Positions 17,173 to 36,264 of a stretch of DNA of 36,357 nt are shown piece by piece. The DNA is from a virus, in UHGV virus genome UHGV-1353415; one strand, written 5' to 3'. Position 1 is the first letter of the stretch; each line of letters begins with the position of its first letter. Below the pieces are notes generated by a model. That model did not search any database, was not told where the DNA came from, and was given only the letters and a program-made list of their open reading frames with translations. Made by a program: the position numbers and the translations under genes.

Positions 17173-18327
17173 TGGAGCACCTCAAAAACACCATCATACA
17201 CTAAATCAGTAAGTTGGCAGCATCACCATAAAAGGTACACAATTGTCATCATTACGCTATTGGCTTGTTTGATAGCGTTGTTCTTTAGGTAACCAGAAGC
17301 TAGCGCTGCAACAAAGCCACCAATAAAGCAAAAGAGAAGAGTGGCAAACATTTCACTGATAAGCCCTTGGCGGTAAGCAATTAATACCGAGAAAAGCATA
17401 ATTATTACCGAAAAACATGCATCTCTTATTGATTTTACGAACATAGAGATATATGGTAAAATTATATAAAAACCCCACTCATATGCAAGAGTCCAGATAA
17501 CCCCGCCAACGATTAAAGATCCATGAATAGAAGGTGTAAGGCCATTAGGGTCAATTATACCAAACGTAAAATATCGGCCAACTTCAACAATAATGTTGTG
17601 AATCCCAATGCTATCGTTGGGTCGAATTAATTCAGAAACACAAACAACGCAAAGCACCATGAATGCATACATTGGAATTAGTCTCTTAACTCGCGCCGAC
17701 AAAAATATTGCAGCATTGTTTATTGGTTTATTTATTATTTTTCTAAAGAAGAGAAACCCTGTAATCATAAAGAATATCATGACTGGAATGGAGCCAAAAT
17801 ATGCAATAGCCAATAAACTATTGTTGCTTGACTTCGCCGTAAATCCATCATTCAAAAATATACTCCATTTATCATGATAAAGATAATTGAACATATATAC
17901 TGAATGGTGAAGGGCGACCATGACAGCCGCCAACCCCCTGAGGCAAGATAAATTGTCATCACCTCGCAACCCAAAAGAAGAGTCTGCAACTAATTCATTC
18001 TTAAACCTTCCGGCAATCCAAAAAACAAAAAATACAGGGATGGAAGATAAAATAAAGATAATAAACGTCAAGTCAAACATAAAAACGCTCACGACCATTA
18101 GGGATTATATAATATCCTGATGTTAAATCATTTAAAGCTATACTTCATTACATTTATATAAAAACGGTAATGGAAAAGATGGTATGAAAATTTCCGCTTT
18201 AAAAACAATTGGATATAATTCTTTCTGTTCTCGTGTTAATCCTATCAAAAAAATGGGATGGGTGCATCATCAACGATGCGCGTGCAGGTTAGTTTGATGA
18301 CTACCCGCTGAAGTGAAAATTGTGTTG

Positions 18328-18621
18328 TGTACCAAATTGCGTACCAAACTAAAATCACAAATCATGAAACCCTTGTTCATGGCGGTTCTCAGGGGTGTTG
18401 CGCGTAATCGTGAAAGAGGAAGGTAGGTTGTTTATCTGTGCCTGTCATTGTCTAGCATTGTCCACTGTAGTTAATTAACTGTCTGTTATAACTCGAAAAA
18501 CAACCCTTTTTTAACCTGAGTATGTCTACGAACGTCAAATATAGTTGTTTACTGTGCGCTGTTGTCCATGTGATATTGTGTACCAGATGTGTACCAAACC
18601 ATTATTTTTGAGCGTACCAAA
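18328..18621 (+). repeat. attP-like region with five GTACCA(A/G)A direct repeats (putative integrase arm-type sites)
   Basis: Copies at about 18329, 18341, 18580, 18591 and 18614, flanking roughly 220 bp of non-coding AT-rich DNA immediately upstream of int. Confidence 0.4.
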
Positions 18622-18629
18622 TATTATTT

Positions 18630-19808
18630 ATGGCTATAAGCGACACAAAACTGCGTACTATTTATGGTAAACCATATTCGGGCCCACAAGAAGTGGCTGA
18701 TGCCGATGGCCTCAGCGTACGAATTTCACCGAAGGGGGTCATCCAGTTCCAGTACCGCTATCGCTGGCATGGCAAGCCTAATCGACTTGGGCTTGGTCGA
18801 TACCCATCCCTGTCTTTGAAGGATGCCAGACAGATCACTGCTGACTTGCGAAAGCTCTATTTCTCAGGAACGGATCCACGCACTTATTTTGAAGAGAAGG
18901 TGGAGAACTCCATGACGGTCGCCCAGTGTCTCGACTACTGGTTCGACAACTACGTCTCTACAACTCTCAGAGAAAAGACCCAGGCACTTTACCGATCAAC
19001 GGTTATGAAGCGCATGTATGACGCCTTCCCTAATCGTCCGGCATCTTCTATCACGGTTAAGCAATGGGTTGACCTGCTTACCGAAGAAGAAAGAGATAAT
19101 CCACGCCGAGCAAGGCAGGTGCTAAGTCAACTAAGATCAGCAATAAGTTGGTGCATGCGGCGTCAGTTGATAGATAGTTGCGCAATTATGAGCATCCAAC
19201 CAAGGGACTTCGGCTCCCGCGCTGAGGTAGGGGAGCGGGTACTGTCGTATCACGAACTGGCTAAGATTTGGCTTGCTATTGAAAGAAGCCGTGCGTCTAC
19301 GTCAAATAAGCTCCTTCATCAGATGCTTATGCTGTGGGGGTCGAGGCTCTCAGAGCTTAGGCTGGCAACAAAGACAGAATTTGACCTGCTGGACAACGTA
19401 TGGACCGTACCGAAAGAGCATAGCAAGATGGGTAATGTTATCCGCCGTCCAATCTTCGAACAAATTAAGCCTTTTCTCGAAAAGGCCATGACAACGTACA
19501 ATGATGTTCTTTTCCCTGGAGAAGACATAAACAAACCGATCAGCATCGCTGCAGCCAACCGATTCGTAAATAGAATAAGGGGAGGGATGGACATAGGTTA
19601 CTGGCGAACACATGATTTCAGAAGAACGCTTGTTACACGGCTGTCCGAGATGAATGTCGAGCCCCATGTTACTGAGCGAATGCTCGGTCATGAACTTGGC
19701 GGGATAATGTCCGTGTACAATAAACACGACTGGATAGAGGCTCAGCGCAAAGCGTATGAGCTTCACGCTGATAAATTGTTCTGGCACATCAGGAACATTT
19801 CTGGTTAA
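18630..19808 (+). CDS. int: tyrosine integrase (P4-type, with N-terminal arm-binding domain)
   Basis: 392 aa; catalytic-type motifs ..HDFRRT.. and ..LGHELGGIMSVYNKHD.. near the C-terminus; N-terminal ..LSVRISPKGVIQFQYRYRW.. arm-binding fold signature. Confidence 0.85.
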   Translation: MAISDTKLRTIYGKPYSGPQEVADADGLSVRISPKGVIQFQYRYRWHGKPNRLGLGRYPSLSLKDARQITADLRKLYFSGTDPRTYFEEKVENSMTVAQCLDYWFDNYVSTTLREKTQALYRSTVMKRMYDAFPNRPASSITVKQWVDLLTEEERDNPRRARQVLSQLRSAISWCMRRQLIDSCAIMSIQPRDFGSRAEVGERVLSYHELAKIWLAIERSRASTSNKLLHQMLMLWGSRLSELRLATKTEFDLLDNVWTVPKEHSKMGNVIRRPIFEQIKPFLEKAMTTYNDVLFPGEDINKPISIAAANRFVNRIRGGMDIGYWRTHDFRRTLVTRLSEMNVEPHVTERMLGHELGGIMSVYNKHDWIEAQRKAYELHADKLFWHIRNISG

Positions 19809-21988: not shown

Positions 21989-22549
21989 TCACTCTCCTTT
22001 GATGCGAATGCCAGCGGAGCGGATTGCAGCGATGACTTCAGAAACTTTGTATGCCATTACCGTTTGGTAATCCTCGTGGAAATCTGTTCGATGAAGCATG
22101 CTGCTACGTTCCGGGAGCAGTATTTCCCGCGCTTCCAGTTCTGCAATGCGCTTCTCTGCGGCTTCCAGCTCAACACGCAGCTTCCCTACCGTTAGCGCAA
22201 TATCCTCGTTCTCCTGGTCGCGGCGTTTGATGTATTGCTGGTTTCTTTCCCGTTCATCCAGAAGCGCCAGCACGGTAGCTGGACTGGCTGCGGCGATGAA
22301 TTCAGCGTTGGCCTGCTGTTCCATTTGGAAATCTTCATCGAAACCGCTTTCTGGATGCGCTCCTTCAATTCTGCAAATGGGAAGATATCCAACAACTTCA
22401 CGATGAATTAGTGCATCACCAGCATCAAATCTCTCCTCTCCATATTCGAGCGACCACACACCACACGTTGCTTTTTCTGCCTTAGCACGCAGTGCCTGAT
22501 AGTCAATCTTGCTCACTGGTTGCCTCCTTTGCGAAGCTGCTCCGCACAA
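21989..22549 (-). CDS. Ea22/Ead-like protein (start uncertain)
   Basis: Coiled-coil-rich ORF; one of three adjacent paralogue-like genes. Confidence 0.45.
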   Translation of the reverse strand: MCGAASQRRQPVSKIDYQALRAKAEKATCGVWSLEYGEERFDAGDALIHREVVGYLPICRIEGAHPESGFDEDFQMEQQANAEFIAAASPATVLALLDERERNQQYIKRRDQENEDIALTVGKLRVELEAAEKRIAELEAREILLPERSSMLHRTDFHEDYQTVMAYKVSEVIAAIRSAGIRIKGE

Positions 22550-23157
22550 TGCAGCAGGGCGTCCGTCGCTTCTTTCACCGTAACGATGTCGCCATCGTCC
22601 AGCCCGGCAACCGTCGCGTCCTTAACGAACACCGAGCAAAGGTCATTAAACGCCTGCGCACGTACTTCAGCCAGGAGAGCGTCGGTGACCGGAGTTTCAG
22701 GAATCCGTCTCCTCATCCGTTCTATTGCATGATTGAACCCGAAATCTTCAGCAAGAGATACGTCATCCATATTGTCATTGTCGTCCTCAATATCCAGTGG
22801 TTCTGGAATTGCAGACTTTATTACCGCATTCTCCGCTGCCAGCGCCGCACACTTGGCCTCAAGAGCGGCAACCACTTCCTGATGGTCTTTGTACTTAACG
22901 TATGAGCCGGAGATGTCATCACCTTCGGTGTTTAGCCATGCGTCATTGCAATTCACTGCGTAGGTTCTGATGCTCATGCTGATGCTCTCCCGCCCCTGAC
23001 AGACGCCAGGCCAGTCAATAAAGTATCCGCAATGCCTACCCTCAGACGTGCGCGCAGGATAAATGCCGTTATGACCCGGCAAAATATATGCTACCCATTC
23101 ATCTTGCGTTGCCTGTTTCGCCGCCTCGCGCAGTTCTTTATAGTTAATTTCGCTCAC
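22513..23157 (-). CDS. Ea22/Ead-like protein
   Basis: 214 aa; C-terminus ..[25 protein letters not shown] shared with the next paralogue. Confidence 0.5.
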   Translation of the reverse strand: MSEINYKELREAAKQATQDEWVAYILPGHNGIYPARTSEGRHCGYFIDWPGVCQGRESISMSIRTYAVNCNDAWLNTEGDDISGSYVKYKDHQEVVAALEAKCAALAAENAVIKSAIPEPLDIEDDNDNMDDVSLAEDFGFNHAIERMRRRIPETPVTDALLAEVRAQAFNDLCSVFVKDATVAGLDDGDIVTVKEATDALLHCAEQLRKGGNQ

Positions 23158-23648
23158 TGGTTGCCTCCTTTACGAAGCTGGGCAGCAATACTTACGCATA
23201 TCTCTGCGCCTCTAATCAGCCCCGGAACGTTCTTGTTTGGCCCAACTTCACCATCAAAAAAATCAATCATCGCGTTGCGAGCCATATCCACGCCCTGCGC
23301 TCGAACTTCAGCTAGGAAAGCGTCGGTGGCTGGGGTTTCAGTAACATCATCTTCCCATTCGCTAAACTCCTCACGACAAAAGTCATTAAATTCCTTCTCA
23401 GATTGCTTAAGTGAGGTATTTTCAGCAGCCATCTTCGCGCATTTAGCCTCAAGGTTATCAATCGTGATTCCAGCAGAACGACACTCCCGCAACGCCGTTT
23501 CCAGTTTTGATTCAAGTTCACCGAACTTACGGACAAGATATTCAGCGTTTGTTTCGTTAACCTTTAAATCACTTGGGATGCATTTACCTTTCAGAAATCC
23601 ATCCATCTCAATTAGTGTCATTTGTTTCATTTCTTCCCACTCCGCCAC
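23154..23648 (-). CDS. Ea22/Ead-like protein
   Basis: 164 aa; C-terminus ..[25 protein letters not shown]. Confidence 0.5.
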
Positions 23649-34004: not shown

Positions 34005-34647
34005 TGGCAGCAAATACCGAAATATTTTGGTAGTTGGCGATCTGCACGGATGCTACACGAACCTGATGAAAAAACTGGAGACGATAGGATTCGACACCAA
34101 AAAAGACCTGCTTATCTCAGTGGGCGATTTGGTTGATCGCGGTACAGAGAACGTCGAATGCCTGGAATTAATCACATTCCCCTGGTTCAGAGCTGTACGT
34201 GGAAACCATGAGCAAATGATGATTGATGGCTTATCAGAGCGTGGAAACGTTAATCACTGGCTGCTTAATGGCGGTGGCTGGTTCTTTAATCTCGATTACG
34301 ACAAAGAAATTCTGGCTAAAGCTCTTGCCCATAAAGCAGATGAACTTCCGTTAATCATCGAACTGGTGAGCAAAGATAAAAAATATGTCATTTGCCACGC
34401 CGATTATCCTTGTGACGAATACGAGTTTGGAAAGCCAGTTGATCATCAGCAGGCAATCTGGAACCGCGAACGAATCAGCAACTCACAAGACGGGATCGTG
34501 AAAGAAATCAAAGGCGCGGACACGTTCATCTTTGGTCATACGCCAGCAGTGAAACCACTCAAGTTTGCCAACCAGATGTATATCGATACCGGCGCAGTGT
34601 TCTGCGGAAACCTCACATTGATTCAGGTACAGGGAGAAGGCGCATGA
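33982..34647 (+). CDS. serine/threonine protein phosphatase (lambda PPase-like, NinI)
   Basis: [23 protein letters not shown]...GDLVDRG...GNHE calcineurin-like metallophosphatase motifs; start at internal ATG 33982. Confidence 0.85.
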
Positions 34648-35267
34648 GACTCGAAAGCGTAGCTAAATTTCATTCGCCAAAAAGCCCGATGATGAGCGAC
34701 TCACCACGGGCCACGGCTTCTGACTCTCTTTCCGGTACTGATGTGATGGCTGCTATGGGGATGGCGCAATCACAAGCCGGATTCGGTATGACTGCATTCT
34801 GCGGTAAGCACGAACTCAGCCAGAACGACAAACAAAAGGCTATCAACTATCTGATGCAATTTGCACACAAGGTATCGGGGAAATACCGTGGCGTTGCAAA
34901 GCTTGAAGGAAATACTAAGGCAAAGGTATTGCAAGTGCTCGCAACATTCGCTTATGCGGATTATTGCCGTAGTGCCGCGACGCCGGGCGCAAGATGCAGA
35001 GATTGCCACGGTACAGGTCGTGCGGTTGATATAGCAAAAACAGAGCAGTGGGGGAGAGTTGTTGAGAAAGAGTGCGGAAGATGCAAAGGCGTCGGCTATT
35101 CAAGAATGCCAGCAAGCGCCGCATATCGCGCTGTAACGATGCTAATCCCAAACCTTACCCAACCCACCTGGTCACGCACTGTTAAGCCGCTGTATGACGC
35201 TCTGGTGGTGCAATGCCACAAGGAAGAGTCAATCGCAGACAATATTTTGAATGCGGTCACACGTTAG
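34644..35267 (+). CDS. Q: late-gene antiterminator Q
   Basis: 207 aa [27 protein letters not shown].. with [14 protein letters not shown] zinc motif; closely matches my recollection of lambda Q. Confidence 0.85.
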
Positions 35268-35309
35268 CAGCATGATTGCCACGGATGGCAACATATTAAC
35301 GGCATGATA

Positions 35310-35338
35310 TTGACTTTTTGAATAAAGTTGGGTAAATT
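35310..35338 (+). promoter_or_regulatory. pR' late promoter (with qut region downstream)
   Basis: TTGACT, 17 nt, TAAATT; context TTGACTTTTTGAATAAAGTTGGGTAAATTTGACCCAACGATGGG matches the lambda pR' region as I recall it. Confidence 0.6.
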
Positions 35339-35478
35339 TGACCCAACGATGGGTTAATTCGCTCGTTGTGGTAGTGAGATAAAAAGAGGCGGCGCTTACT
35401 ACCGATTCCGCCTAGTTGGTCACTTCGACGTATCGTCTGGAACTCCAACCATCGCAGGCTGAGAGGTCTGCAAATGCA

Positions 35479-35537
35479 ATCCCGAAACAGTTCGCAGGTA
35501 ATAGTTAGAGCCTGCATAACGGTTTCGGGATTTTTTA
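35479..35537 (+). terminator. tR' terminator (end of the short 6S-type late leader transcript)
   Basis: Long hairpin ATCCCGAAAC...GTTTCGGGAT followed by TTTTTTAT. Confidence 0.6.
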
Positions 35538-35540
35538 TTT

Positions 35541-35615
35541 GGGTCAGTCGTATAAAGGTCATTACGGAAGGCTGTTAACCTTCTTATCGTGGTTCGAGTC
35601 CACGCTGTCCCGCCA
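35541..35615 (+). tRNA. tRNA-like gene, anticodon GUU (Asn-like), imperfect acceptor and D stems
   Basis: Hand-folded cloverleaf: anticodon arm GAAGG-CTGTTAA-CCTTC, T arm CGTGG-TTCGAGT-CCACG, 3' CCA present; one acceptor mismatch. Confidence 0.45.
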
Positions 35616-35620
35616 AACAT

Positions 35621-35696
35621 GCTGGTTTAGCTCTAATGGTAGAGCAGTCGCCTTGTAAGCGAATGGGTAGCGGTTCAAGTCCGTTAACCAGCACCA
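35621..35696 (+). tRNA. tRNA, anticodon UGU (Thr-like)
   Basis: Hand-folded: acceptor GCTGGTT/AACCAGC, D arm GCTC-TAATGGTA-GAGC, anticodon loop CTTGTAA, T arm AGCGG-TTCAAGT-CCGTT, discriminator A, CCA. Confidence 0.6.
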
Positions 35697-35940
35697 TAAC
35701 TGAGCCGTAGCCACTGGCTATATCCTGAATTCATCAGTGATAGTTACGCTGCGGCCTTCTACACATGATCTTCGTGAAAGCGGGTGGCAGGAGGTCGCGC
35801 TAACAACCTCCTGCTGTTTTGCCCGTGCATATCGGTCACGAACAAATCTGATTACTAAACACAGTAGCCTGGATTTGTTCTATCAGTAATCGACCTTATT
35901 CCTAATTAAATAGAGCAAATCCCCTTATTGGGGGTAAGAC

Positions 35941-36264
35941 ATGAAGATGCCAGAAAAACATGACCTGTTAGCCGCCATTCTCGCGGCAAAGGAACAAGGC
36001 ATCGGGGCAATCCTTGCGTTTGCAATGGCGTACCTTCGCGGAAGATATAATGGCGGTGCGTTTACAAAAACAGTAATCGACGCAACGATGTGCGCCATTA
36101 TCGCCTGGTTCATTCGTGACCTTCTCGACTTCGCCGGATTAAGTAGCAATCTCGCTTATATAACGAGCGTGTTCATCGGCTACATCGGTACTGACTCGAT
36201 TGGTTCGCTTATCAAACGCTTCGCTACTAAAAAAGCCGGAGTAGAAGATGGTGGAAATCAATAA
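35941..36264 (+). CDS. S: holin S (class I, dual-start)
   Basis: 107 aa [20 protein letters not shown].. closely matches my recollection of lambda S; Met1-Lys2-Met3 dual start. Confidence 0.85.

Follow-up and report, generated by a model that had tools for sequence, protein, structure and literature searches.

The window, as we call the whole stretch of 36,357 nucleotides analysed here (UHGV virus genome UHGV-1353415), is a temperate phage of mosaic make-up, with its genes in virion order: contractile-tail genes, an O-acetyltransferase, a '2851-type' int/attP, Mu Gam-like and RecT proteins, a lambda-like nin region, Q, and S. In whole-phage matches, coverage by any single phage record did not exceed 51% for either part. 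The O-acetyltransferase-like gene (17223-18098, minus strand; PHROG 3333) separates the tail genes from attP, which is the usual position of the serotype-conversion gene in SfI/SfV-like phages. An endolysin at both window ends, with the sequence wrapping around, was ruled out because the ORF at 68-544 hits PHROG 1961, a family of unknown function, and precedes the head genes; it is thus not R.

ARAGORN identified two tRNA genes and no others in the 36 kb window, both on the plus strand of the late leader (Table 1). Both were also recovered with the Rfam model RF00005, which they cover from position 1 to 71, with scores well above its gathering score of 29 bits: 55.3 bits for tRNA-Asn (E = 1.9e-9) and 63.2 bits for tRNA-Thr (E = 1.3e-11). 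The initial annotation had folded two tRNA-like genes by hand, Asn-like GUU and Thr-like UGU with CCA ends, and had placed them between tR' and S of a lambda-like late region. Neither was rejected by the prediction software, and their coordinates, anticodons, ends, and location are confirmed.

Table 1. Features of the late leader and of the Oad2 homologue in the window.
Feature	Coordinates	Strand	Description	Evidence
Q late antiterminator gene, lambda-type	34644-35267	+	207 aa	PHROG 127, anti-termination protein Q-like, E = 1.4e-82
pR' late promoter	35310-35338	+	TTGACT-17-TAAATT	aligns with lambda pR' and the annotated HK446 pR'
tR' terminator	35481-35538	+	long hairpin CCCGAAAC...GTTTCGGG and T-run, at the end of a ~192-nt 6S-like leader	RNA fold; lambda-identical to 35538
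Cassette segment	35539-35697	+	replaces lambda 44782-44944	alignment and anchor search
tRNA-Asn(GUU)	35541-35615	+	75 nt, discriminator G73, CCA encoded	ARAGORN, Rfam
Spacer AACAT	35616-35620	+	5 nt, between tRNA-Asn and tRNA-Thr; same in phage 21	
tRNA-Thr(UGU)	35621-35696	+	76 nt, G1-C72, C2-G71, A73, CCA encoded	ARAGORN, Rfam
Linker TAACTGAGCCGTAGCC...GGCCTTCT	35697-35771	+	~75 nt	common to lambda, phage 21, and the window
S holin/antiholin gene, lambda-type	35941-36264	+	first late protein gene downstream	PHROG 126, holin/anti-holin, E = 1.5e-40
Oad2 homologue ORF	23154-23648	-	164 aa	56% identity over the full length to HK446 gp27 (Oad2), E = 2e-49

In E. coli, the asparaginyl-tRNA synthetase recognises G34, U35, U36, and G73, and the threonyl-tRNA synthetase recognises G1-C72, C2-G71, G35, and U36. 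Judging from their sequences, the window tRNAs have all these aminoacylation identity elements. The stems are not perfect: tRNA-Asn has mismatches U4.U69 in the acceptor stem and U13.U22 in the D stem, and tRNA-Thr has a single one, G27.A43. The latter is in the anticodon arm, which reads GUCGC/CUUGUAA/GCGAA (G27 U28 C29 G30 C31 before the loop, G39 C40 G41 A42 A43 after it).

To assess the conservation of these genes, we scanned IMG/VR with a 16-mer from the tRNA-Asn D-arm and obtained 80 loci. Around 14 of them were chance matches with unrelated flanks and were left out; the others comprise 56 Asn-Thr arrays, two Asn-Phe-Thr-Arg arrays, a few loci with tRNA-Asn alone, and three Stx-type stubs. 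The exact tRNA-Asn sequence of the window occurs in 45 IMG/VR loci. Among the 10 distinct variants of this gene, three pairs show changes in both partners (6:66, 7:65, and 28:42), and 90.5% of the cells are paired. The distinct variants of tRNA-Thr show five compensatory pairs and 94.7% of paired cells, whereas slid controls gave only 23-54%. The mismatches of tRNA-Asn are unchanged in 10/10 distinct variants (13:22 and 4:68 in gene numbering, the latter being canonical 4:69), and G27.A43 of tRNA-Thr is retained in 16/17. The initial annotation was thus right about stem mismatches in the first copy. Its suggestion that this copy may be degenerate does not hold: the gene is 100% identical to that of phage 21 and common in IMG/VR, its stems show compensatory changes, and its mismatches are invariant. 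Since the mismatches are conserved and covariation supports both cloverleaves, neither copy is degenerate. Covariance score, full cloverleaf, covariation, and identity elements all indicate that the two genes encode bacterial-type elongator tRNAs.

The regions flanking the pair match lambda closely, as had been proposed: 266 of 272 positions are identical between the Q stop codon and tR' (98%), and 234 of 243 between AACTGAGCC and the start of S (96%). Between these conserved flanks, 159 nt of the window (35539-35697) take the place of 163 nt in lambda (44782-44944). The two segments are 48% identical, which is the level expected by chance, and ARAGORN found no tRNA gene anywhere in the lambda genome. 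The pair is therefore absent from lambda, as the initial annotation stated. However, it was not inserted into the lambda leader as this annotation described, but exchanged for unrelated DNA. The same figures rule out a tRNA remnant in the 163 nt that were replaced in lambda. Downstream of tRNA-Thr, phage 21 matches the linker over ~75 nt and then diverges into its own lysis genes, and lambda has the linker without the tRNAs. This linker thus persists with or without tRNAs and whichever lysis module is found downstream. It may mark a boundary at which modules are exchanged. Further towards S, a G+C-rich hairpin followed by TGTTTTG (GGCAGGAGGTCGCGCTAACAACCTCCTGC TGTTTTG, window 35786-35825) is conserved in lambda, HK446, and Sf6; it was not flagged by the terminator scan.

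The position of the tRNA genes has consequences for their expression. The tRNA-Asn gene starts 2-3 nt past the T-run of tR', and RNA folding shows an intact hairpin directly before it. (A simple terminator scan missed tR' because its loop limit was 8 nt.) The only sigma-70-like site found by a promoter scan of 35150-36000 is pR', which rules out a separate promoter for the tRNAs in this interval. With no promoter of their own and a place just past tR', the genes should be transcribed from pR' and only after Q read-through. From this anatomy, we expect that pR' transcripts antiterminated by Q past tR' would carry both tRNAs, which host RNase P and 3' trimming enzymes would then excise from the late transcript.

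The pair belongs to a known family. Its tRNA-Asn is identical to CPT_21_64 of phage 21 over 75/75 positions, its tRNA-Thr is identical to that phage's tRNA-Thr over 75/76, and the pair as a whole over 155/156. In phage 21 (CPT_21_64 and CPT_21_65, OL657228 39591-39746), the genes have the same order, the same 5-nt spacer, and the same place directly after tR'. Identity, order, spacer, and position thus all indicate a phage-21-type Asn-Thr late-leader cassette. Many lambdoid, P22-like, and SfI-like temperate phages have this cassette where their late operon begins. Asn(GUU) and Thr(UGU) genes in tandem after Q were described in SfI, Sf6, ST64T, PS3, and phage 21 (PMC3636060), and the papers on phage L and epsilon34 describe the same tandem pair for P22-like phages. 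Annotations of the pair exist for phage 21, Sf6 ('similar to phage 21'), SfI, Kapi1, mEp506, BTP1, and SPN9CC; HK446 and several other phages have it without annotation. We found it in 369 of 5,426 complete E. coli genomes, in which PGAP annotates the tRNAs.

The cassette itself is therefore not new: it has been known from the time phage 21 and Sf6 were sequenced, automatic pipelines annotate it, and an anti-Old function was given to its tRNA-Thr in 2025-2026. The window is of value for the context, because it shows the module on another backbone, behind a lambda-type Q in a myovirus of the SfI type whose att site is not tRNA-derived. It also highlights the tRNA-Asn that is always linked to the better-known tRNA-Thr and whose role is putative. 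The backbone, that of a contractile-tailed SfI/SfV-like phage, is unlike phage 21. The window cassette is behind a lambda-type Q/pR'/tR', like that of HK446, whereas that of phage 21 is behind elements of its own type. More generally, the junction between TTTTTTATTT and GGGTCAG is found in 59 IMG/VR loci, behind a phage-21-type tR' in 48 and a lambda-type tR' in 11. The closest relative of the window at the locus is HK446 (98.5% identity), whose tRNA-Thr has the sequence of the phage 21 gene.

The one position at which the window tRNA-Thr departs from that of phage 21 is in the D-loop: position 14 (window 35634) is U instead of C. The U14 allele is present in three of the ~62 IMG/VR copies, and nearly all others have C14. 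In host thrU and in the tRNA-Thr of P7 the base is A, which is near-universal at position 14 of tRNAs. A second, identical U14 copy is found in a P22-like prophage of E. coli EC187792, in which an HNH endonuclease ORF separates Q from the tRNA pair in the normally short late leader (locus L014, 19317-19808). The spacer also varies in IMG/VR, where both AACAT and AATAT occur.

What the pair does is best understood for tRNA-Thr. The Old protein of P2 is a Toprim tRNase that kills P2 lysogens infected by lambda, making two cuts in the anticodon stem of the host tRNA-ThrU(UGU), at paired CNG motifs (PMC12445682). The tRNA-Thr21 of phage 21, which we equate with the gene of the phage 21 genome record by the paper's description (C28U/G42A and a shorter stem), protects cells from Old toxicity; it remains uncleaved by virtue of these two substitutions and of the shorter anticodon stem (PMC12445682). 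Similarly, HK97, HK542, and Bas34, which are sensitive to Old, form plaques again when the tRNA-Thr(UGU) of HK446 is supplied (bioRxiv 10.64898/2026.07.10.737580).

The window tRNA-Thr has the same hallmarks of an Old-resistant tRNA-Thr(UGU), namely a UGU anticodon, C28U/G42A, and a shortened anticodon stem. Compared with thrU, it is identical in 7/7 positions of the anticodon loop and 23/32 of the other stems, but in only 2/10 positions of the anticodon stem (p = 0.008). The pair U28-A42 replaces C28-G42, the G27.A43 mismatch leaves a 4-bp stem, and there is no CNG motif on either strand. The phage tRNA keeps the 7-nt loop and the threonyl-tRNA synthetase identity elements of the host and differs in the stem. 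Among the Old-countering tRNAs (tRNA-Thr21, tRNA-Thr6, and those of HK446, T4, and Bas32), its anticodon arm is the same as in tRNA-Thr21 and HK446. Since U14 is the sole difference from these two molecules, the arm is identical to the one tested experimentally, and rescue and resistance to cleavage would be expected to carry over to the U14 allele. T4 and T5 encode large tRNA arrays, whereas the temperate phage of the window has just one Thr/Asn pair.

Taken together, these data lead us to consider it fairly probable that the genes encode functional elongator tRNAs forming a Q-dependent module of the late operon. Its tRNA-Thr(UGU) would act as a nuclease-resistant stand-in for the host tRNA-ThrU cut by Old, a proposal based on others' evidence on a molecule with an identical anticodon arm. 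Its tRNA-Asn(GUU) would likewise stand in for a host tRNA that Old and the AriB of PARIS attack as a secondary target, and the two tRNAs would also add capacity to decode ACA and AAY codons late in infection. This reading must accommodate several published observations. All the rescue experiments used expression from plasmids (PMC12445682; bioRxiv 10.64898/2026.07.10.737580), tRNA-Thr alone rescued neither lambda nor the toxicity in recB-deficient cells, and HK446's own escape from Old was mapped to the protein Oad2, a reported inhibitor of Old (bioRxiv 10.64898/2026.07.10.737580). The window encodes a homologue of the latter (Table 1), so the tRNA may be redundant. The phage may thus have two putative layers of anti-Old function. 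We found neither a lambda-type Gam nor Abc2, which trigger Old, in the window, only the Mu Gam-like protein and RecT. Next to the Oad2 homologue, an ORF of 214 aa (22513-23157, minus strand) is its partial paralogue (34% identity).

The AriB nuclease of PARIS cleaves Lys(UUU), then Thr(UGU), and then Asn(GUU), between positions 40 and 41 beside U36-A-A-U39; cleavage is abolished by U39A, and a resistant tRNA-Lys(UUU) is required for escape (PMC12409363). The window carries two of these three isoacceptors, with changes at positions 39 and 41 flanking the cut: U39 to G and A41 to G in tRNA-Thr relative to thrU, U39 to C and C41 to U in tRNA-Asn relative to asnT. The prime target, tRNA-Lys(UUU), is not among the only two tRNAs that ARAGORN identifies in the window. 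Complete escape from PARIS is therefore not expected, and the resistance of the other two is a prediction from these substitutions.

We put forward, with some hesitation, the possibility that the Asn-Thr pair is a minimal counter-defence module, with a tRNA-Asn that is also resistant to cleavage, matched to the targets of Old and AriB, timed by its place past tR', and traded as a unit. The nucleases concerned would be the ABC-ATPase/Toprim tRNases of rival P2 prophages and P4 satellites. The position past tR' would time expression so as to rescue late protein synthesis, and the unit would be exchanged among lambdoid phages between the terminator T-run and the conserved 75-nt linker. The case for counter-defence is weaker for tRNA-Asn than for tRNA-Thr. 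The divergence of tRNA-Asn from asnT is spread over the molecule and not focused in the anticodon stem (p = 0.47), and the copy in Klebsiella phage Mulock has paired CNG motifs. It is a slow substrate of Old in one study (PMC12445682) and is not among the Old targets of another (bioRxiv 10.64898/2026.07.10.737580).

Could the pair serve only to supply codons? The tRNAs would then raise the pool reading ACA and AAC/AAU in the burst of late proteins, and their resistance to nucleases would be incidental. We think this unlikely. In its favour, host thrU is a single gene, and ACA accounts for 13.5 of every 1000 codons (19% of Thr) in the window late genes. The corresponding values are 8.1 for lambda late genes, 8.6 for ordinary K-12 genes, and 2.9 for K-12 ribosomal and elongation factor genes. 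The P22-like prophage with the identical cassette reaches 16.0 per 1000. Yet, P22, which lacks the cassette, is equally rich in ACA (13.1 per 1000) and has more Asn codons (53.4 per 1000). E. coli has four gene copies of tRNA-Asn. The same cassette occurs in phages with unrelated late genes, such as a myovirus (the window), a podovirus, and a siphovirus, and codon supply leaves unexplained why the divergence of tRNA-Thr is focused in the anticodon stem. The idea was put forward in the papers on SfI (PMC3636060) and phage L, but SfI shows no bias in Asn codons (PMC3636060). The comparison with P22 makes codon supply a possible contribution, not the determinant.

It is much less probable that the tRNAs are non-functional passengers, i.e., decaying relics or mere recombination linkers and RNA-processing sites in the late leader. 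The stem mismatches could be taken this way, as could the odd derivatives in phage L and JLK-2012 and a truncated tRNA-Asn in Stx2a phages that reveals recombination inside the gene. However, near-identity has been kept over decades and across hosts, phage 21 having been isolated from Paris sewage in the 1950s. Moreover, compensatory substitutions have kept the stems paired, the aminoacylation identity elements are intact, and the Thr member is biologically active once expressed.

The least credible explanation is that the phage supplies a tRNA whose host gene was damaged when the prophage integrated, as suggested for HK446 in a discussion (bioRxiv 10.64898/2026.07.10.737580). HK446 and SfI do integrate in thrW, a tRNA-Thr gene; but the HK446 attP has 63 nt similar to thrW, and the equivalent attP of phage L rebuilds an intact thrW on integration. 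In the window, the attP region (18262-18640) is ~98% identical to the 'type 2851' attP of HK544 and has nothing tRNA-like, which rules out such compensation here. The tRNAs are ~17 kb from int, and the terminator before them is closed in lysogens. Several different att modules accompany the cassette, and the idea leaves tRNA-Asn unexplained. That the cassette coexists with a non-tRNA att site in the window also argues against the idea for HK446.

Several variants of the cassette deserve mention. In phage L (locus L009, 381-452), and likewise in ST64T, the second gene is 72 nt long. It resembles tRNA-Thr21 in its acceptor, D, and T arms, but its anticodon arm is entirely different and allows only a 4- or 6-nt loop. 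ARAGORN rejects this gene, which was named Leu(UAA) in the phage L genome paper. A chimeric 'tRNA-Thr' in JLK-2012 (locus L011, 481-556; also IMG/VR loci L024 and L055) is of the phage 21 type over positions 1-26 and thrU-like over 27-76. Its 3' anticodon-stem strand is UCAUC, allowing only 3 bp, and ARAGORN rejects it too; it is directly followed by a tRNA-Gly(UCC), another reported target of Old. In a single IMG/VR contig (L029), the tRNA-Asn scaffold has the anticodon GAT (U35 to A) and two other substitutions, and ARAGORN classes it as Ile. A switch of anticodon, decay, or an error in sequencing may explain it.

The initial annotation had compared the locus with the slot in which Stx phages carry tRNAs and toxins, and this equivalence stands: the ileZ-argN-argO array upstream of stx2A is in the same place, between tR' and the lysis genes. 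Its tRNAs differ from those of the window, and it has toxin genes where the window has none, in agreement with the earlier claim: in the 244 nt between tRNA-Thr and S (35697 to 35941), there is no plus-strand ORF of at least 60 aa that could encode a toxin or other cargo. In Stx2a phages with a phage-21-type Q, the 24-nt 5' stub of tRNA-Asn (GGGTCAATCGTATAAAGGTCATTA) directly follows the T-run of a phage-21-type tR' (locus L012, 703-726, in AP012538, Stx2a phage WGPS4; also IMG/VR loci of the L026 type); then come unrelated DNA and ileZ-argN-argO-stx2A. The stub looks like the scar of Stx cargo that would have displaced the Asn-Thr cassette by recombination inside the tRNA gene.

Other phages combine the same isoacceptors. 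In Klebsiella phage Mulock (locus L010, 301-620), the lambdoid cassette is extended to Asn-Phe(GAA)-Thr-Arg(UCU). P1-like phages have an unrelated-looking Asn(GUU)-Thr(UGU) pair (P7/P1; locus L013, 425-578), adjacent and in the same order as in the window, but only 45/76 and 64/76 identical to it and in a different genomic context. Unlike that of the window, the P7 tRNA-Thr has a 5-bp anticodon stem with paired CNG motifs. The pairing of Asn with Thr(UGU) thus recurs across phage groups.
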